From the NCBI RefSeq assembly GCF_011045215.1, contig NZ_CP049201.1: 64,000 nt of DNA; one strand, 5' to 3'. Both the position numbers and the translations under genes were made by a program. Within the stretch, counting starts at the first letter, position 1; each line of letters begins with the position of its first letter. The DNA is from Escherichia coli (GTDB lineage: Bacteria; Pseudomonadota; Gammaproteobacteria; Enterobacterales; Enterobacteriaceae). The notes under the pieces are model-generated. The model did no database searches, had not been told where the DNA came from, and saw only the letters and a list, made by a program, of their open reading frames with translations. This document shows positions 10,888 through 25,002 of the stretch, piece after piece.

Positions 10888-12428
10888 AAATCCGTTCGCA
10901 AGTCGGCATGGTGCTTAATCTCGATAAATGTATCGGCTGCCATACCTGTTCGGTGACCTGTAAAAACGTCTGGACCGGACGCGAAGGCATGGAGTACGCA
11001 TGGTTTAACAACGTCGAAACCAAACCGGGCATTGGTTATCCGAAAAACTGGGAAGATCAGGAAGAGTGGCAAGGCGGCTGGGTGCGTGATGTGAATGGCA
11101 AGATACGCCCGCGTCTGGGCAACAAGATGGGCGTAATAACCAAAATCTTCGCCAACCCGGTGGTGCCGCAGATTGATGATTACTACGAACCTTTCACCTT
11201 CGACTACGAACATTTGCATAGCGCACCGGAAGGCAAACATATTCCTACTGCTCGCCCGCGTTCACTGATTGACGGCAAACGGATGGACAAAGTGATCTGG
11301 GGGCCAAACTGGGAAGAACTGCTGGGCGGTGAGTTCGAAAAACGTGCCCGCGACCGCAACTTCGAGGCCATGCAAAAGGAGATGTACGGGCAGTTTGAAA
11401 ACACCTTCATGATGTACCTGCCGCGCCTGTGCGAACACTGCCTCAATCCCAGCTGCGTGGCGACCTGCCCAAGCGGCGCTATCTACAAACGCGAAGAAGA
11501 CGGCATTGTGCTGATTGATCAGGATAAATGCCGTGGCTGGCGTTTGTGCATAAGCGGTTGTCCGTACAAAAAAATCTACTTCAACTGGAAAAGCGGCAAG
11601 TCAGAAAAATGCATCTTCTGTTACCCACGAATTGAGTCCGGTCAACCGACCGTGTGCTCAGAAACCTGCGTGGGTCGCATCCGGTATCTGGGCGTGCTGC
11701 TTTACGACGCCGACCGCATCGAGGAAGCGGCGAGCACCGAGCGCGAAGTTGACCTCTATGAACGCCAGTGCGAAGTGTTCCTCGATCCACACGATCCCTC
11801 AGTGATCGAGGAAGCCCTGAAACAAGGTATTCCACAAAATGTGATTGACGCTGCCCAGCGTTCGCCAGTCTACAAAATGGCGATGGACTGGAAACTGGCA
11901 CTACCGTTGCACCCTGAATACCGCACCCTGCCGATGGTCTGGTACGTTCCTCCGCTGTCACCGATTCAGTCCTACGCAGATGCGGGCGGTTTGCCGAAAA
12001 GCGAAGGCGTGCTGCCCGCCATCGAAAGCCTGCGTATTCCGGTGCAATATCTCGCCAATATGTTGAGTGCCGGCGATACCGGTCCGGTACTGCGGGCGCT
12101 GAAACGGATGATGGCGATGCGCCACTATATGCGTTCACAAACCGTGGAAGGCGTTACTGATACTCGTGCCATCGACGAAGTAGGCCTGAGCGTCGCCCAG
12201 GTCGAAGAGATGTATCGCTATCTCGCCATTGCCAACTATGAAGATCGTTTTGTTATCCCGACCAGCCATCGGGAAATGGCGGGCGATGCCTTCGCAGAAC
12301 GCAACGGCTGCGGTTTTACCTTTGGCGACGGTTGCCACGGTTCGGACAGTAAATTCAACCTGTTCAACAGTAGCCGTATCGATGCCATCAACATCACCGA
12401 AGTGCGCGACAAAGCGGAGGGCGAATAA
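10884..12428 (+). CDS. narY: Nitrate reductase 2 beta subunit NarY (Fe-S)
   Basis: 514 aa with ferredoxin-type Cys clusters (CIGCHTC...C); start overlaps narZ stop. Confidence 0.93.
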   Translation: MKIRSQVGMVLNLDKCIGCHTCSVTCKNVWTGREGMEYAWFNNVETKPGIGYPKNWEDQEEWQGGWVRDVNGKIRPRLGNKMGVITKIFANPVVPQIDDYYEPFTFDYEHLHSAPEGKHIPTARPRSLIDGKRMDKVIWGPNWEELLGGEFEKRARDRNFEAMQKEMYGQFENTFMMYLPRLCEHCLNPSCVATCPSGAIYKREEDGIVLIDQDKCRGWRLCISGCPYKKIYFNWKSGKSEKCIFCYPRIESGQPTVCSETCVGRIRYLGVLLYDADRIEEAASTEREVDLYERQCEVFLDPHDPSVIEEALKQGIPQNVIDAAQRSPVYKMAMDWKLALPLHPEYRTLPMVWYVPPLSPIQSYADAGGLPKSEGVLPAIESLRIPVQYLANMLSAGDTGPVLRALKRMMAMRHYMRSQTVEGVTDTRAIDEVGLSVAQVEEMYRYLAIANYEDRFVIPTSHREMAGDAFAERNGCGFTFGDGCHGSDSKFNLFNSSRIDAINITEVRDKAEGE

Positions 12429-16978: not shown

Positions 16979-17350
16979 TCAACGAACCAGGGCAAGATTA
17001 CGAAAGCCCGCTCCCGCAAGGACTGACGCCAGATAGTTTCTGTCCATGGCTGCTTTTCGCATCTTACGTCTTAACCCTGCCTTGAATACCTTATCATTCG
17101 TCAAAATATTAATAGCAATGTGCCGTATCCCTGAAAATAATTCTGCAGCATTTCCTCTTCTTATTTTGCAGTCGTCTTCATTCATTACCACGTCCAGACG
17201 CCAGTGCAGCTTATTCTCCACGTGCCAGTGGTTTCGGATTGCTGTGGCGAACTTCTCTGCGGTTAAATCAGCAGAACTGATATAATATCTGACCGTCATT
17301 TCTGGCTCTTTCTTTTGTTCTGCTATTATTGACCGAAAGGAGACTGCCAC
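16979..17350 (-). mobile_element. Truncated H-repeat-associated (ISAs1-family) transposase remnant, C-terminal 123 aa only
   Basis: [30 protein letters not shown] is the conserved C-terminal DDE region of H-rpt/ISAs1 transposases (K-12 ydcC/yncI lie at the equivalent place). The N-terminal two-thirds is missing. Confidence 0.7.
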
Positions 17351-17667
17351 GCATAATTTCTTCAGTCCTTTCCATTCAAACGTGAAATCAATAAGTTCAT
17401 CAGGGACATCGCAAACAATATGAAGACGGATTTCTTCTCTGCCGTGACTAAAATGCGAATTATTTAGTACAAAAAAAGCGGCGCACCTTGTTCTTTCCCA
17501 GATTCCTAATATGGCAACTTTAAGTTATCGCCGTCTATACTTATAGAAATTTCATCAGGGGTGACGTAAATAGAATTTTTTTCATCCTCAATTGCCCATA
17601 ACTGATTAATAAAAAAGTATTTTTTTCATCTAATAAAAAATTATCACATGTAGTAAAATTATTAATA

Positions 17668-18327
17668 TCAAAAAAAATCATCAGCACAATTAATTTTTAA
17701 ATTTAAAAAATAAAGAAAAATATTATTGATTGATTTGAGTGTAAACCACTTGTCATTAACAAATTTATAGCCAGATGATTTTATAAAATAATAATTATCT
17801 CCTGGTATAAAGGCATACATATCATTTAAGGTTATACTCAACAAAAAACTACGACCTGGTTTAATAGTATTCCACCGTTCAGGATTCGTATTAATTTCAA
17901 AAGGACATGAACCACCTAAGTAGTCCAACGTGATATTCCCAGAGTTGATTCTGAATGGTTTTTTGCATATCGCATCATATTCATCTCCTTTTCCATCTTT
18001 TACTTTCATAGGTAGATAATATTTAGAAAAAAAATACGTGGTAGAGCTATTGTTAGTAAAGGTTATGTTAGCAAAAATCCTGTTATTTTTTTTACTCATA
18101 GCTAATTGAGCATTGACATCCGCTATATAATTTATATGATTACATTTTTTCTTACACTCATCATAATTTTCGATAGGATAAATTAATGGCCTTCCTTTGA
18201 TATCTCTCTCAAGCCCAAACCCGTATTTTTTTATTAAAACCATTTCATCCGCAGTCGATTGAAAGGAATAGAAAAATATAATATTTACGATTGTCATTAT
18301 TATGATTTTTTTTATAGCTTGCAGCAT
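17668..18327 (-). CDS. Hypothetical exported protein (219 aa) with N-terminal signal peptide; AT-rich island ORF
   Basis: Hydrophobic N-terminus IIIMTIVNIIFFYSFQSTADE; strongly AT-rich; no family recognised. Confidence 0.45.
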   Translation of the reverse strand: MLQAIKKIIIMTIVNIIFFYSFQSTADEMVLIKKYGFGLERDIKGRPLIYPIENYDECKKKCNHINYIADVNAQLAMSKKNNRIFANITFTNNSSTTYFFSKYYLPMKVKDGKGDEYDAICKKPFRINSGNITLDYLGGSCPFEINTNPERWNTIKPGRSFLLSITLNDMYAFIPGDNYYFIKSSGYKFVNDKWFTLKSINNIFLYFLNLKINCADDFF

Positions 18328-18350
18328 TAATATATTTCTCGACTTATTAG

Positions 18351-18653
18351 TTAATGGAGAAGTGCTTTTTCTAATTCCGCTATTTTTTTCTTAACTGAAT
18401 TGCTTAATATTTCATCATTAATCGAGTCTATCTCACTTTCAATTAATCTTATTTCAAAATATCTTTCTATGTTATATGCATTCTCAAATATTTGATCTTT
18501 TTGTTTAGAGATCAGTTTAGTTGCAATACGGATATGTTCGTCATATGAAACTTCATCCTCTTTGCACGTTGAATATTTATCAGTAGTTGTATAATTCTGT
18601 GACCACATACCACCTTTTTTATTATCCCCATAATACCACTGAATATGAGACAT
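18351..18653 (-). CDS. Hypothetical small protein (100 aa), candidate immunity or accessory protein
   Basis: ATG at 18651-18653 with GGAAAGGA upstream; AT-rich; inside the VgrG island. Confidence 0.4.
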   Translation of the reverse strand: MSHIQWYYGDNKKGGMWSQNYTTTDKYSTCKEDEVSYDEHIRIATKLISKQKDQIFENAYNIERYFEIRLIESEIDSINDEILSNSVKKKIAELEKALLH

Positions 18654-18691
18654 TTCATGACATAAAGTAGCAACATGAGAATCCTTTCCCG

Positions 18692-19141
18692 TTACTGGAT
18701 TTTTTTGCCATCTCTATACTCAAATTTTGCGCCTATGTTAATTATATAGGGCATATCCTTACTTGGGCTGACGAATGCTGCAAATTCATTACAACCTGTA
18801 TAATTTATAAAACTGCTCATTGTTAAATCATTAGCTATAATCATTAATCTTCTCACACCATCCATCATAAGAAATCTAGCATTCATGCGCCTAACTGTAT
18901 TATGTCCATATTTTCTTATATTAACTTCCTTATTTCCTTTAACACCAAAGATCTTACTGAAATCATATTCCTCCTGTGCTCCCCATCTCAAAAGATCATC
19001 TGCTCTTTTTATCAAAACCAACTTTTGTGCCTTACGAACCTTATCAATCATTATTTTAAAATGATCAGTTATTTTTTGCTCTTTCACACATTCTTCTGGC
19101 TCTGGCTTTGGTTGTCCAGAAGTTTGATTATTATCGTCCAT
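18692..19141 (-). CDS. Hypothetical protein (149 aa from the ATG with an RBS; the longest ORF runs to 19198)
   Basis: GGAAGGA then ATG (MDDNNQTSGQ...) at 19141; AT-rich; no recognisable domain. Confidence 0.4.
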   Translation of the reverse strand: MDDNNQTSGQPKPEPEECVKEQKITDHFKIMIDKVRKAQKLVLIKRADDLLRWGAQEEYDFSKIFGVKGNKEVNIRKYGHNTVRRMNARFLMMDGVRRLMIIANDLTMSSFINYTGCNEFAAFVSPSKDMPYIINIGAKFEYRDGKKIQ

Positions 19142-19327
19142 AGTGTCCTTCCATTGAGAGAAAATCATCATTCGCAAATAGCAACTAAAAAGCAGCATTA
19201 CTTGACCTTTCCCTGCATAACAATATTTATAAAATAATACGTTTTATGATCTCACCTTGGGCTCCCAACAAGATAATTTCAGTTTTAAAGACTTTCACGA
19301 AAAAATATAGAAATACCTCACCACCCT

Positions 19328-19618
19328 TCACTTACCAATTAATCTCACAGGAAATCCAACTTCCTTACCACAAATACAATCCCAAGTAACATTTCCCAAA
19401 ATTTTTGATACTTTAGGCTGCAATGGCATTATTGACATTATAAATTTATCAAGTTCTTCGCTATATTTAATTCCCTTTATATTTCTTATTATTGATATTC
19501 TAGCAGTAAAGATAGCCGTCTCTCCATCTACACTAAAAGTGTAATTACAATTTTTTGTAATCTCATCAAATTCAACCGATAACAAATCAATATTATGGTT
19601 TGTAAACACTATGCCCAT
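19328..19618 (-). CDS. Putative cognate immunity protein (96 aa) for the upstream T6SS toxin
   Basis: Start overlaps the toxin stop by 26 nt, a typical toxin-immunity arrangement; small and AT-rich. Confidence 0.5.
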   Translation of the reverse strand: MGIVFTNHNIDLLSVEFDEITKNCNYTFSVDGETAIFTARISIIRNIKGIKYSEELDKFIMSIMPLQPKVSKILGNVTWDCICGKEVGFPVRLIGK

Positions 19619-21032
19619 TCCATACCTCCTTAAATTCCTGTTCAGTCATCAGATATCGACTCCCTTGATATGGATCATATATTATCACATTCCCAGCATC
19701 ATCAACACCCTTAACAAGTACCCAATGTCCTACTTTACTTCCAGAATCCCACATCATTGCTCCCCATGAACCAGTATTACTGAGGGCATATAAACTAGAT
19801 TCGCTCACTGCATTCCCTTCCCAGCCGACATCAAATTTATTAAGCTTGTTTGCCAGCGACGTCATAGATGTTAATTCTGTTCCAATTACATTTTGCGTGA
19901 CAAAAATATACCTATCCCTAAGCAACATTTCCCCACAGGCCGCTCCACAGCCTGTTAAAGTCAATTGCTTTATTACATTTGAATCTAAAACCTCATCAAA
20001 TACTGTCCAATTGCCACCAGCACCACCTTCTAAAACTACCGGCTCTACAAATACTTTCCCAGAGATATTTTCTTCTGGTATTTTTGCGGGTATCATAAAG
20101 CCCCATAAAAAGCTGGAAAAATGCTCCAGAGCAATCTGATCACCATTATTTGCATCCATTATCATTTTTTTAAGTGCATCCCATGCTTGCCCATTTATCA
20201 ATGAATCACTAATATTAAATAAAGCCTGTTCTTTTTCGTTTAAATTTATATTTGCCTGTTCACATAACCCATCTTCGCCTATCGGGCAAGCAACCGTTGC
20301 CGTTGCCGTATCTAACAGAGCATCGAATGTAACTAAGGCTAAATCCGCCACACCATGTAAAGTGGTGATTGCTCCATTCCCCATTTGAGTAAGTGTGTTC
20401 TCTCCAAACCATTCTCTAATTTGAGATTTATCTCCTTCAATACCATTCCTGAGAGATTCTCTGATATTCTTTATTGAAAAAAACTCCCCCCATGATTGGT
20501 CAGGATCTTTTATTTGGAATAAATCATTTTTAACCTCAGGTGAAATATCTCCGTCAAAAATATTACCAACAGAGAGGAGATCCTTCAGAAGCAGTAAATC
20601 GTGTATTACTTCAGCAGTCCTTTCATAATTAAAACTTCTATCAATGACAGAAATCATTGGTGATTTTATTTTGGTATATAATTTACCAAGGCAGTTATGG
20701 TTATTAATCCCAACAACTGAACCATGATAAGCAACAGGTTTCCCTTCTATTGTTACAGTCGGACTTCCCGTTAAAATAACACAGTCACCCGTTCCTTGAG
20801 ATGTACCGGATATGACACCTTTACCGGCATTACTTTGAGTTCCAGCAATCACTGAACCAACATTTAAAGCTCTGCATCCACGCGCCCATACCGTTGAACT
20901 GTACTGTCTTTCACTATCTAAAGTCTGGTAACTGTCAAAAGGAACCTTGTAACCTCCTACTTCACATACATCTGGTGAAGTACACACGACTCTAAATCTA
21001 GATTCACCATCCCCGATATGATAGTTACCCAT
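19593..21032 (-). CDS. T6SS polymorphic toxin: N-terminal PAAR-like (DUF4150-type) domain, C-terminal papain-like cysteine peptidase (C39-like) domain; 479 aa
   Basis: N-terminus VCTSPDVCEVGG...GSPTVTIEGKPVAYHGS resembles PAAR-like spike-capping domains. C-terminus has a CGAAC motif at residues 362-366 and GHWVLV...D...IYDP at 436-453, a Cys/His/Asp arrangement like peptidase C39 folds. Follows vgrG and the DUF2169-like gene. Confidence 0.6.
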   Translation of the reverse strand: MGNYHIGDGESRFRVVCTSPDVCEVGGYKVPFDSYQTLDSERQYSSTVWARGCRALNVGSVIAGTQSNAGKGVISGTSQGTGDCVILTGSPTVTIEGKPVAYHGSVVGINNHNCLGKLYTKIKSPMISVIDRSFNYERTAEVIHDLLLLKDLLSVGNIFDGDISPEVKNDLFQIKDPDQSWGEFFSIKNIRESLRNGIEGDKSQIREWFGENTLTQMGNGAITTLHGVADLALVTFDALLDTATATVACPIGEDGLCEQANINLNEKEQALFNISDSLINGQAWDALKKMIMDANNGDQIALEHFSSFLWGFMIPAKIPEENISGKVFVEPVVLEGGAGGNWTVFDEVLDSNVIKQLTLTGCGAACGEMLLRDRYIFVTQNVIGTELTSMTSLANKLNKFDVGWEGNAVSESSLYALSNTGSWGAMMWDSGSKVGHWVLVKGVDDAGNVIIYDPYQGSRYLMTEQEFKEVWNGHSVYKP

Positions 21033-22071
21033 AATATTTTTTCCCTATACATTCAGGAATAATACAACTCAGCACTCCTTCTTTCATTCCAAAAAAATCA
21101 GGTATTGTTAATCTCCAGGTAAGGTATATTTCCTGTCGACTTAAATCGATAACCATTGTATCCGCAACAGGTAAGAACATATGTGATGTATTATGCTTGG
21201 TTTTTAATATAAGTACAGGTCGTATACCTGGCAATTTTGTCTTAACAACCTGTTCAAATTTAAAAAAACCTTCAAGAGAGATGTTTTCATCGCCAGAGAG
21301 AAACCCCGTGTATATCATATCCGGATGAGCACTATTGTAGAACCGCTCATCAAAATCATCCGGCAAATAGGGATAGCGCTTTTCACGCCATACTTCATTG
21401 TAGGTTCCTGCATACTGGAGGCGACTTTTCCACCATCGAGATACAGGGCCAACACCTTGAAAAAAGTCAGATTCCCCATTAAAAATGGTAGCGTTTTCTG
21501 ACAAAGCAGAGCTGGTTATTTGTGGGAGTTTATATTGACAACTTGTATTAAGTTGGGAAATATCAGGATAATATCCACAACCTACAGGGTTTGCTGAAAA
21601 AACCAATTTCTCCATACCATCTGGTTGCCAAATACCACCGTAAGCAAGCTCATAGCGTAGAGGAATATTAATAATTTTATCTGGTAAGCTCATCTGCCAA
21701 CGATTTCGCTCATATTGTAAGTAGCGGACACCAGATAAACTCAGTTCTTTAGAAAAACTATTAACCCTCACACAAGCCTTCCACTGAGACTTATCCCCTG
21801 AAGGGGCATGAGCACTACCTGTCACGTGAATATCTGTATTTCTTTTACAAAGAACTAAGTCTGTTTCAGATTTTAGACTACTTGTTTCAGGCTCCCCATA
21901 GTATTCATCAGACATGGACAATTCTCTTTGAAATTCAGCAAGATCAGCATAAAATCCATTTTTAATTCGCAATGACATTTTAATAGCAATAACATCAAAC
22001 AAAAGACCATAACGACCATATTTTTCAAATGACAACAAAGGAAATGGCGTGTTATTTTTCATTTCTATCAT
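21025..22071 (-). CDS. DUF2169-like T6SS adaptor/chaperone protein (348 aa)
   Basis: Called mainly by context: lies between vgrG and a PAAR-like toxin, and its stop overlaps the toxin start by 8 nt (translational coupling). Confidence 0.5.
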   Translation of the reverse strand: MIEMKNNTPFPLLSFEKYGRYGLLFDVIAIKMSLRIKNGFYADLAEFQRELSMSDEYYGEPETSSLKSETDLVLCKRNTDIHVTGSAHAPSGDKSQWKACVRVNSFSKELSLSGVRYLQYERNRWQMSLPDKIINIPLRYELAYGGIWQPDGMEKLVFSANPVGCGYYPDISQLNTSCQYKLPQITSSALSENATIFNGESDFFQGVGPVSRWWKSRLQYAGTYNEVWREKRYPYLPDDFDERFYNSAHPDMIYTGFLSGDENISLEGFFKFEQVVKTKLPGIRPVLILKTKHNTSHMFLPVADTMVIDLSRQEIYLTWRLTIPDFFGMKEGVLSCIIPECIGKKYYG

Positions 22072-22177: not shown

Positions 22178-24160
22178 CTATCCGTTCAGATGAATATCTT
22201 TTCCTTTAATATCTACAGGACCGGTAGCCTCAAATAGAAACTCCGTCCCCCGTATTATTATCTTTCCTGTTTTCTCCAGTTTTATGGAACAAGTCCCGCT
22301 CTCTCCCTGCCCACAAATTAGCTCAATACTGTCCCCAGATATGATTTTTGTACCATGCTCAACTTTCAGTTCGTAATTATCACCTATTTTAATACTCTGT
22401 TTTTTGACGACTTCTTCGGTATCAGTTCCCGTCACCTTGCTTGTCTGGTTGTTATTCACAACCTTGTGCCGGTCATTTTTTATCGTGAGATGCTGATCGT
22501 TCGCTACCGTCACTTTCTGGTCATGACCACCTTCCTTTTTGCTCCCCACATTCACCGTCTGGCCCTTCACCACCGTTATCTTCTGGTTGTTACCGATGGT
22601 TTCCGTATGGTCATGTTTCACATCCGTTGTCCGGTCGTTGAGCACCTCCGTATCCATGTTCTTCTGGGCATGGATATACACCTGCTCATTACTGGTGGCG
22701 TCTTCAAACCGTAGCTCGTTAAATCCGCTTCCTTTATAGGTTTTTGACCGGATGGTCATCTGCGTCTTCGTTCCCGGCAGGTCGCCCGGGGAGCGGTTAT
22801 CTTCATGGTAGGTCCGTCCCGTGACGATGGGCTGGTCCGGGTCGCCGTTCAGGAAGTCAACAATCACCTCCTGGCCCACCCGCGGTATCGCCAGGTTACC
22901 GAACCCCGGCCCCGCCCACGCCTGCGATACCCGCACCCAGCATGAACTCGCCTCCGTCATCCCGTGATAACGGTCCCAGTGGAACTTCACCCGTACCCGG
23001 CCATGTTCGTCGCAGAATATCTCCTCACCCTTCGGCCCGGTCACAATGGCACTCTGCGGCCCGTCCACCTTCGGTTTGCTTTGCAGCCGTGGACGCCACG
23101 TCCGGTCTGCCGGTATCACCTCTAACTGATTTCCCAGCGTGGTTCCCCTCCCCTGGCTGCCGTGCAGCGCCTGCGGCTGGCTTCCTGACAGTATGCTCTG
23201 TACCACCTGCCATTCACGGTTCAGCATCTTCTGCGGATGCCCCGTCAGCGTAAACCGCGTTCCCGGCCACAGCTTCGGTGAATTACTCTGCCCTGTGGCC
23301 TTTTCCGCATCACTGCGCAGGCTGTCCATCTGGTACAGCGTGAAATCCTTGCCGTGCTGCTCATCCTTGAACCTTCCCGGATAATCAAATATCTCGTACT
23401 GCGCCAGCTGTCCGTTCAGGTTCTCACCCTGCTGCTCATACATCCCCGGCCAGTCCGGCACCTTAAACGTGTAATCCTGACTCTGCACCGACGACGGGCG
23501 GACATGCGCCTCATAACGGAACGTACTGAGACACTCCGTCTCCGCTCCTGCCGATGTGTCCGGGTTAAACGGAAGCTCTCCCGCCTGTGACAGCCCCGCC
23601 ACATCGTCGCACAGCGTCAGCTTCTGCTCCGGGCTGTCCGCCGCAAACCGCTCAAAGAAGAAAATCCCCTCCTCCGCCCACAGCCGCGCCAGAAACGCCA
23701 GGTCGCTCTCTCCGTACTGGACACAGAACTCCCGCGCCGGATGGTCTTCATAAAACAGCGGCGTCCACTCCGTGACGCCGTTCTCATTCAGTAACGTGGC
23801 CGATATCGTCCGGATATCCTGCTGCTGGAAGATACGGAAGTTCTGCCGCAGCCCGCACCGCCATAACGGCGGCTCAATACGCAGGTGATAACGCATCTGC
23901 CAGCCATTGTTCTCCTGCATGCCAAAACCCGCCACCACGCCGGTGACATAACGCAGCGGGATGACGCCCTGCCAGATGGTCAGCGTCGCCTTCTTCTCCA
24001 GCAGCATCTCCGCCGTCTGCATAAAAGAGTCGCTGGCAACATCCACACTCATCACAAACGGATATGACTGGTTCTGGATTAACCTGAAGCTCACCACTGC
24101 AAAGGTGTCCGGCTCCTGGCCGTCAACCTCCAGCGTAAAGCGCAGACCTTTTAAGGACAT
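22178..24160 (-). CDS. vgrG: Type VI secretion spike protein VgrG (660 aa)
   Basis: N-terminus MSLKGLRFTLEVDGQEPDTFAVVSFRLIQ and central gp27/gp5-like regions (IFDYPGRF, HWDRYHG, VGQEVIVDFLNGDPDQPIVTGRTYH) are hallmark VgrG motifs. The C-terminal third is AT-rich and repetitive. Confidence 0.88.
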   Translation of the reverse strand: MSLKGLRFTLEVDGQEPDTFAVVSFRLIQNQSYPFVMSVDVASDSFMQTAEMLLEKKATLTIWQGVIPLRYVTGVVAGFGMQENNGWQMRYHLRIEPPLWRCGLRQNFRIFQQQDIRTISATLLNENGVTEWTPLFYEDHPAREFCVQYGESDLAFLARLWAEEGIFFFERFAADSPEQKLTLCDDVAGLSQAGELPFNPDTSAGAETECLSTFRYEAHVRPSSVQSQDYTFKVPDWPGMYEQQGENLNGQLAQYEIFDYPGRFKDEQHGKDFTLYQMDSLRSDAEKATGQSNSPKLWPGTRFTLTGHPQKMLNREWQVVQSILSGSQPQALHGSQGRGTTLGNQLEVIPADRTWRPRLQSKPKVDGPQSAIVTGPKGEEIFCDEHGRVRVKFHWDRYHGMTEASSCWVRVSQAWAGPGFGNLAIPRVGQEVIVDFLNGDPDQPIVTGRTYHEDNRSPGDLPGTKTQMTIRSKTYKGSGFNELRFEDATSNEQVYIHAQKNMDTEVLNDRTTDVKHDHTETIGNNQKITVVKGQTVNVGSKKEGGHDQKVTVANDQHLTIKNDRHKVVNNNQTSKVTGTDTEEVVKKQSIKIGDNYELKVEHGTKIISGDSIELICGQGESGTCSIKLEKTGKIIIRGTEFLFEATGPVDIKGKDIHLNG

Positions 24161-24178
24161 AAATACCTCTCAGACATA

Positions 24179-24463
24179 TCAGCCTATATTTACCGTACCG
24201 CCACCAATGACCACGCCGCCGCAGTCAACAGCATCACCGCTTCTGGCGGCGGGCAGGCCGTCAATAAAGACGGTTGAAGAACCTCTGGCGATTTTACGGG
24301 GATGAGGGGGATGCTTCGGTTTAGCATGCGGCGTCAGCGGATCTCCCTGACGGGCTGCGGGGAGACCATCGATAAAAACGGTGGATGACCCGGCGGTGAT
24401 GACGGTCTCGTAATAACCGTCGTGCTGAGTGCCTTTGTCGGTGAGTTTGGCTGCTAAAGGCAT
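24179..24463 (-). CDS. PAAR-repeat protein (T6SS spike tip), 94 aa
   Basis: Two copies of SSTVFIDGLPAAR(Q/S)GD plus an N-terminal AAKLTD motif; 18 nt upstream of vgrG on the same strand. Confidence 0.75.
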   Translation of the reverse strand: MPLAAKLTDKGTQHDGYYETVITAGSSTVFIDGLPAARQGDPLTPHAKPKHPPHPRKIARGSSTVFIDGLPAARSGDAVDCGGVVIGGGTVNIG

Positions 24464-25002
24464 AATTTCTCCTGTTCAGAATTTCTACAGCAGCAGGTTT
24501 CAAAAATCCGGAGAAATATTCAACGAAATATTAATCACTTCACCGGATATTCTGATACGTACCTTCACTGGTCTATTTAAGTAATACAAATTGTTGGCGT
24601 GTATTAAGTTCCATTTTGTTCTCCTTAATTATGTAAGGAGTATTTGATCATGTATAAGCAATAAAAACAGCTTCAGGAAATAAGGAATATCGCAATTTTT
24701 AAACATAAAATGCGAATCGTTCAATACAAAAAAGCAGCGTTGCGTAATCTTTCCCTGATTAAATACGCTACCGCCCTACCCTGATGACATGATCTGCACT
24801 GCACTATCATATCGACATGTTTCTCTACATGCGAAAAGATGTTTTATTTTCGGATTATATTAAATTGACATTTCATATAAAAAACGAAATTACATCAATC
24901 ATATAAATAATTGTACCAACTTTAATTACTATTCATAGCAAACAAATGGATATCCAGTTAACTACGCCAGTGATTCATTAACATTAACCTCCGGCATTAT
25001 TG

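Follow-up and report, generated by a model that had tools for sequence, protein, structure and literature searches.

The window, a 64,000-nucleotide stretch of an Escherichia coli chromosome, carries a type VI secretion system (T6SS) island bordered by narZ...nhoA, yddH and pptA on one side and by yncG, ansP and yncE on the other. The features of the island, in window positions, are given below from the PAAR promoter side to the distal end.

24604-24757: end fragment of ISAs1/ISEc1 (155 bp, 92% match), just upstream of the PAAR promoter region
24464..25002, minus strand: upstream region, AT-rich (32.5% GC), with promoter-like sites
24179..24463, minus strand: PAAR gene, encoding a stand-alone (class 1) T6SS PAAR spike-tip protein of 94 aa
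24281..24340, minus strand: segment PLTPHAKPKHPPHPRKIARG (aa 42-61) of the PAAR protein, the presumed linker, which is beta-hairpin 2 of the cone and contains the predicted metal ligands H46 and H54
22178..24160, minus strand: vgrG, encoding a chimeric spike protein of 660 aa (Phage_GPD, Phage_base_V and Gp5_trimer_C by Pfam; TIGR03361)
21025..22071, minus strand: gene for a DUF2169 (TvpA) chaperone of the PAAR-like/PIPY domain (PF09937, 1.3e-72)
19593..21032, minus strand: cpe1, 479 aa, with matches to Tox-PAAR-like (DUF4150/PIPY; PF13665, 4e-12) and PF03412 (3e-6)
19328..19618, minus strand: cpi1, encoding an immunity protein of 96 aa, 95 of them identical to S88 Cpi1
17668..19198, minus strand: decayed former cargo, a 042-type 'peptidase M35' gene and its truncated neighbour, delimited by tblastn and nucleotide alignment to EAEC 042
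16988..17499, no strand assigned: internally deleted ISAs1/ISEc1 copy (98.5% to ISEc1 of FDAARGOS_1254) at the distal end of the island

A good Shine-Dalgarno sequence, AGGAGAAATTATG, precedes the ATG start codon of the PAAR open reading frame at 24179..24463 (minus strand). Between its stop and the ATG of vgrG, which has a Shine-Dalgarno sequence of its own, lie 18 nt. Promoter-like hexamers occur on the minus strand at 24881-24854 (10/12), 24835-24806 and 24656-24628, in a scan for promoters and terminators of low information value, with 25 promoter-like sites where 14.3 were expected. No other vgrG or PAAR gene was found within the 64-kb window. The reading frame is intact and its product is 100% identical to WP_001127492.1, so that the disruption of the gene that the earlier note had considered does not exist. 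This RefSeq entry, annotated "type VI secretion system PAAR protein", is found in E. coli A30 and EAEC 042, and the PAAR genes of both strains differ from the window gene by synonymous changes only.

Family and structure comparisons agree on the identity of the protein. It matches the Pfam family PF05488 (PAAR_motif) over aa 20-86 (5e-21; 75.1 bits against a cutoff of 27) and the NCBIfam model NF033420 (T6SS_PAAR_dom) over all 94 of its 94 positions and without gaps (156.5 bits against a cutoff of 124). Among proteins of known structure, it aligns with c1882 of strain CFT073 (PDB 4JIW_D; E=1.6e-57) at 89 of 93 residues (96%) and with VCA0105 of Vibrio cholerae (PDB 4JIV; E=1.3e-32). AlphaFold2, run on 31 homologues, gives a model with a mean pLDDT of 95.9 and a conical fold of three beta-hairpins. 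In Foldseek, this model superimposes on 4JIW_D with a TM score of 0.97 and an rmsd of 0.6 Å over 93 residues, and the next-best matches are VCA0105, gp5.4 of phage T4 (TM 0.89) and other phage PAAR tips. The 94 residues comprise the PAAR domain alone, with neither an N- nor a C-terminal extension, as in class 1 ('orphan') PAAR proteins. From these comparisons, it is nearly certain that the gene encodes a canonical stand-alone T6SS PAAR protein, essentially c1882. The protein is a full member of its family, displays every testable defining feature and is already known. Alleles in E. coli differ mostly at synonymous sites; between the window and the CFT073/MS20645 allele, 23 differences are synonymous and 8 non-synonymous. 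This pattern indicates that the gene is under purifying selection.

The translation confirms what the earlier note had read at this position, a PAAR gene with two near-identical motifs. These are SSTVFIDGLPAARQGD (aa 26-41) and SSTVFIDGLPAARSGD (aa 62-77), with aa 42-61 between them. A third, degenerate copy of the repeat, PLAAKLTD (aa 2-9), had been overlooked. The protein thus holds three PAAR-type motifs, PLAAK (aa 2-6), PAAR (aa 35-38) and PAAR (aa 71-74), which are conserved across the alignment of 31 sequences. The two 16-mers agree at 15 of 16 residues and at only 34 of 48 nucleotides, and they are therefore an ancient internal repeat whose copies selection has kept similar, reflecting the pseudo-threefold PAAR fold. 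Such a repeat would let a monomer sit on a trimer. Two other origins of the resemblance, a chance match (given the 15/16 residues and 34/48 nucleotides) and a recent internal duplication or gene conversion (given the 34/48 nucleotides), were rejected.

The segment between the two full motifs is rich in proline and histidine, with five Pro and three His in 20 residues, and had been taken for an unusual linker inserted into the protein. Its composition is indeed odd, and the Pfam match, in which 67 residues occupy 61 profile positions, is about six residues longer than the generic model. However, the segment lies inside both the Pfam match and the gap-free alignment to the 94 positions of NF033420, which means that it is no insert. 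Its counterparts in c1882 (PLTPHDKPKHPPHPRKIARG) and VCA0105 (PLAPHDKPKHPSHGRAIAAG) are nearly unchanged. Across 31 homologues at 62-96% identity, from Escherichia, Salmonella, Citrobacter, Enterobacter, Lelliottia, Buttiauxella, Yokenella, Yersinia, Photobacterium, Vibrio, Aeromonas and Halodesulfovibrio, aa 42-61 form the most conserved block. The invariant columns of this alignment, which includes c1882, comprise H14, H46, P49, H54 and C81; K48, P52, P53 and R56 reach at least 90% conservation, and H51 is variable, an extra histidine of the loop. PAAR proteins thus commonly have this segment. A disordered or low-complexity linker was likewise rejected on the structure prediction, which gives an ordered beta-hairpin with strands at 42-46 and 54-58 (pLDDT 96-98).

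In published descriptions, the PAAR fold comprises three beta-hairpins that differ in length, and a tetrahedrally coordinated metal, with three His and one Cys as ligands, links their tips (PMC10715212; PMC12407873; PMC7773334). Both c1882 and VCA0105 bind zinc through this site (PMC10715212; PMC12407873; PMC7773334). By homology, H14, H46, H54 and C81 are the predicted 3His+1Cys metal site of the window protein. The conservation pattern, the modelled strands and the published descriptions of the metal site together identify the Pro/His-rich segment as hairpin 2, which supplies two of the four predicted ligands. The idea that it is an unusual insert conferring a special property on this PAAR protein thus has a negligible chance of being right; the c1882 and VCA0105 counterparts, the 31-sequence alignment and NF033420 already refute it. 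The feature that was flagged matters little, given a protein identical to a RefSeq entry and 96% identical to a crystallised one, in which the hairpin is the textbook metal-binding vertex of PAAR cones.

The position of the gene is also that of c1882. In CFT073, the gene right after yncG and directly upstream of vgrG c1883 has a translation that equals the 4JIW sequence exactly, and because the setting between yncG and vgrG is the same, the window PAAR gene is the positional orthologue of c1882. Another CFT073 PAAR gene, at 1721906, was considered as c1882 and rejected, as its translation mismatches 4JIW and the true c1882 adjoins yncG. The earlier note correctly placed the window gene upstream of vgrG but saw a peculiarity in this order, which c1882, likewise upstream of c1883, does not bear out. 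The PAAR gene family is present in 687 of 5426 complete E. coli genomes (989 copies), and every E. coli locus inspected has the PAAR gene as the immediate upstream neighbour of a vgrG. The Citrobacter freundii gene directly precedes a vgrG-DUF6484-DUF2169-...-Tox-PAAR-like series. In Salmonella and Yersinia, the PAAR homologue is the last gene, after the vgrG-cargo module, and in Photobacterium a close homologue stands at the end of the core cluster. Across the loci inspected in these genera, the position of PAAR varies, and a place upstream of vgrG is the norm of E. coli.

Downstream of PAAR, the island encodes a spike protein and a toxin module. VgrG ends in a blunt beta-helix tip, ...GPVDIKGKDIHLNG, which resembles the tip strand of c1883, GGVDIKGAKINLNG. 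The DUF2169 protein is identical to its S88 counterpart at 345 of 348 residues. Cpe1 has an N-terminal Tox-PAAR-like domain followed by a papain-like (C39-like) cysteine protease toxin domain, and it shares 473 of 479 residues with the product of the S88 gene annotated cpe1, including the catalytic C362 within GCGAAC. The cpe1-cpi1 region as a whole is about 99% identical in nucleotide sequence to the S88 genes annotated cpe1 and cpi1. The DUF2169 gene overlaps cpe1, and cpe1 overlaps cpi1. Cpe1 is a papain-like cysteine protease effector of the T6SS that cleaves GyrB and ParE, and Cpe1-dependent killing has been shown with E. coli ATCC 11775 (PMC12136450). The PF13665 match of Cpe1 bears out the earlier suggestion that the island encodes a second PAAR-type tip domain, carried on a toxin. 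The N-terminus of Cpe1 reads YKVPFDSY (K-V-P-F), without the first Pro of the P(I/V)P(Y/F) motif, and the His/Cys pattern of PAAR was not found in it by pairwise comparison. With vgrG (PF05954 and related families), a single-domain DUF2169 gene (PF09937) and a DUF4150 gene (PF13665) in consecutive order, the island has the arrangement that defines synteny type B, or Tvp class I.

The two parts of the island differ in their relatives. In sliding-identity comparisons, 24700-22600 (the upstream region, PAAR and the 5' part of vgrG) resembles 042 and CFT073, whereas 22600-19300 matches the S88 module at 96-100% identity and has no relation to 042. The differences between the window and S88 VgrG proteins are distributed accordingly, 26 of 27 falling within aa 1-532 and one within aa 533-660. 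The 3'-terminal ~420 nt of vgrG (S88-like, 99%) are thus part of the Cpe1 module, and the sequence 5' of ~22600 comes from the yncG-locus lineage. Similarity to 042 resumes past 19186 (98.4%). There, the 042-type 'peptidase M35' effector gene (HEMSH motif) is broken by a 1-nt deletion near 18707, and its neighbour, a putative immunity gene bearing a signal peptide, is cut from 274 to 219 aa. EAEC 042 has this same PAAR protein in front of another VgrG C-terminus and the M35 cargo. A step in GC content also runs through the operon, from 57.5% in PAAR and 58.8% in the 5' part of vgrG to 37% in the DUF2169 gene, 39% in cpe1 and 30% in cpi1. A GC-rich core with an AT-rich tip is typical of vgrG/Rhs cassettes.

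The sliding identity and the distribution of the amino acid differences indicate that the resident, conserved arm of the locus includes PAAR and that the Cpe1 module was imported by recombination within vgrG. In this cargo swap, the resident PAAR gene and 5' part of vgrG were joined near 22600 to a vgrG 3' end followed by DUF2169-cpe1-cpi1, a module otherwise found in B2 strains, in the aspV T6SS core cluster behind hcp. The result is a paar-vgrG-DUF2169-cpe1-cpi1 unit at the yncG/pptA (RhsE) locus with PAAR as its first cistron. No match to this exact combination at the yncG locus was found among the 5426 complete E. coli genomes. Among the best matches, either the module is at the fadE/ivy (aspV) locus or, as in A30, the locus and the PIPY domain are shared and the toxin domain is another one. 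The island illustrates clearly how vgrG islands of E. coli diversify, with a GC-rich arm of PAAR and the vgrG 5' part serving as a recombination handle, an AT-rich DUF2169-Cpe1-Cpi1 cargo swapped in and an earlier effector left decaying downstream.

The ISAs1/ISEc1 pieces at 16988-17499 and 24604-24757 have the same orientation and bracket the T6SS island; the Pfam family DDE_Tnp_1 matches the reading frame at 16979-17350. Copies of the 155-bp IS-end piece also follow the cargo modules of A30 and S88. In A30 (7939-12364), PAAR-vgrG-DUF2169-PAAR-like genes occupy the yncG locus and are 98.5% identical to the window down to position 20081. A different toxin domain follows the PAAR-like domain in this strain, and a second vgrG fragment and an M23 peptidase module lie downstream.

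Several described systems resemble parts of the island. The crystal structure of c1882 on a VgrG-like tip (PDB 4JIW) was reportedly presented by Shneider et al. 2013, Nature 500:350. The window protein shares with c1882 the chromosomal position after yncG and upstream of vgrG and differs from it by G40E, A47D, S75T and V79I (window residue to c1882 residue), so that the His/Pro hairpin is the same except for A47D. The two loci differ in the C-terminal part of the partner VgrG and in the cargo, which is of the DUF4123 type in CFT073 and DUF2169-Cpe1 in the window. VCA0105 has the same length class, fold and H/H/H/C pattern at 64% identity to the window PAAR, and its gene is presumably not adjacent to a vgrG. 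T4 gp5.4 and the phage PAAR-repeat tips (PDB 4KU0, 9F4B and 6P1Z) have the same three-hairpin cone with three His and one Cys and with hairpin 2 the longest. However, they are only 26-29% identical to the window PAAR, the metal of gp5.4 is Fe, and they cap a phage spike rather than a T6SS VgrG.

Modules of the order vgrG-DUF2169-PAAR-like effector are known as class I Tvp (PMC13373197). The order vgrG-DUF2169-PAAR-like toxin-immunity also occurs in VgrG2-Atu3641-Tde2 of Agrobacterium tumefaciens and with VP1415 of Vibrio parahaemolyticus (PMC11883445; PMC13373197). The window island differs from other class I Tvp, or synteny type B, modules in the canonical PAAR gene directly upstream. DUF2169 genes are rarely near PAAR genes, which is a statistical tendency and not a strict criterion (Sachar et al., PMC11883445). 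The window module departs from this tendency, and the pairing recurs in ~80 E. coli genomes and in Citrobacter freundii. In ATCC 11775 and S88, the Cpe1-Cpi1 module (PMC12136450) stands behind hcp in the aspV core cluster, with no PAAR gene next to it, unlike that of the window, which lies at the yncG locus behind PAAR and has a chimeric vgrG. The island is thus a class I Tvp, or synteny type B, module with Cpe1-Cpi1 and no new kind of system.

The presence of two tip proteins raises the question of which one caps this VgrG. By homology to solved structures, the PAAR protein is a cone of ~94 aa with three beta-hairpins, in which the three PAAR-type motifs would make a threefold crossover on the blunt end of the VgrG trimer and H14, H46, H54 and C81 would bind one metal ion that ties the hairpin tips. 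For PIPY domains, the predicted fold is a PAAR-like cone that lacks the zinc site, and a functional spike forms from them only with DUF2169, which in turn occurs strictly together with VgrG and DUF4150 (PMC11883445). As a VgrG trimer would carry a single tip, PAAR and the PAAR-like (PIPY) domain of Cpe1 would be mutually exclusive caps. The toxin-loaded spike would then consist of VgrG and the Cpe1 PIPY domain held by DUF2169, while PAAR would cap toxin-free trimers, either of the island VgrG or of paralogues whose cargo has no tip domain. Capping by PAAR may in turn support baseplate and sheath assembly, for which PAAR is required in EAEC (PMC10715212). The PAAR-VgrG interface is mainly backbone-mediated (PMC12407873), and the association of one PAAR protein with differing VgrG C-termini, here and in 042, fits such an interface. 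Together with the purifying selection on the gene, the closeness of the VgrG tip strand to that of c1883 suggests that PAAR is still usable on this VgrG. A canonical PAAR protein, a cargo-swapped operon and alternative caps together provide the best overall explanation, at a probability of roughly 0.8. The more specific division of labour, with Cpe1-PIPY and DUF2169 on the loaded spike and PAAR as a mutually exclusive generic cap, is favoured with some reservation.

The distribution of the genes bears on this division. All complete E. coli genomes with the Cpe1 module hold a c1882-like PAAR gene somewhere, the PAAR-only and combined sets both numbering 687 genomes. By estimates from a synthetic two-part query and evenly spread rows of its matches, PAAR lies directly upstream of the vgrG of a Cpe1 module in ~80 genomes, and hcp takes this place in ~218. 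S88 and ATCC 11775 have the order hcp-vgrG-DUF2169-cpe1-cpi1, and no PAAR gene was found in the entire T6SS core cluster of S88, which favours Cpe1 as the cognate tip. The lack of a PAAR gene beside the S88-type module does not imply that PAAR is dispensable, because every E. coli genome with a Cpe1 module carries one at some locus.

Universal carriage of the PAAR family by these genomes would also be expected if PAAR were the only true cap and Cpe1 rode elsewhere, on the beta-prism side or through DUF2169, with both on one spike. The translational adjacency of PAAR to vgrG points in the same direction, as does the tip strand of this VgrG, which is close to that of c1883, with which c1882 was crystallised. 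Against this stand the match of the Cpe1 N-terminus to Tox-PAAR-like and the prediction that Tox-PAAR-like domains are PAAR cones that form VgrG-PIPY-DUF2169 tips (PMC11883445; PMC13373197). The ~218 genomes with the module behind hcp and no adjacent PAAR, along with the S88 core cluster, speak against it as well, and PAAR as the sole cap is improbable. It is quite improbable, too, that PAAR is a functionless passenger retained in the conserved 5' recombination arm of a vgrG cassette. The gene does lie in the resident arm, outside the imported Cpe1 module; the S88-type module occurs without it, and the old cargo nearby is decaying. However, PAAR itself has not decayed: the reading frame is intact, the protein is identical in A30 and 042 with synonymous gene differences only, all metal ligands and PAAR motifs are retained, and so are the Shine-Dalgarno sequence and the spacing to vgrG.

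Alternative capping, the preferred reading, leaves room for a functional side to the recurrent pairing of PAAR with VgrG-DUF2169-PIPY. The two tips might compete for the same VgrG trimer and so set the ratio of blank, assembly-competent spikes to Cpe1-loaded ones, or the VgrG tip might first be primed by PAAR and then receive the PIPY domain from DUF2169; both ideas are speculative and on balance doubtful. With both tips in one operon, the island is a natural setting in which to study how a VgrG comes to be capped by a plain PAAR protein or by a PAAR-like toxin with its chaperone.

Related arrangements are found in other genomes. Citrobacter freundii carries tandem vgrG-cargo-PAAR arrays that end in PAAR-vgrG-DUF6484-DUF2169-x-Tox-PAAR-like/Tox-GHH2, so that a canonical PAAR gene immediately precedes a class II Tvp module. 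A collapsed locus of ~2.6 kb, seen in NZ_OZ282453.1, NZ_CP031347.1 and NZ_AP024921.1, is carried by about 35 genomes, O145:H28 strains among them. This locus contains PAAR, a gene annotated tssI, a reading frame with a C39 domain and cpi1, and the DUF2169 gene and the PAAR-like domain have apparently been deleted from it.
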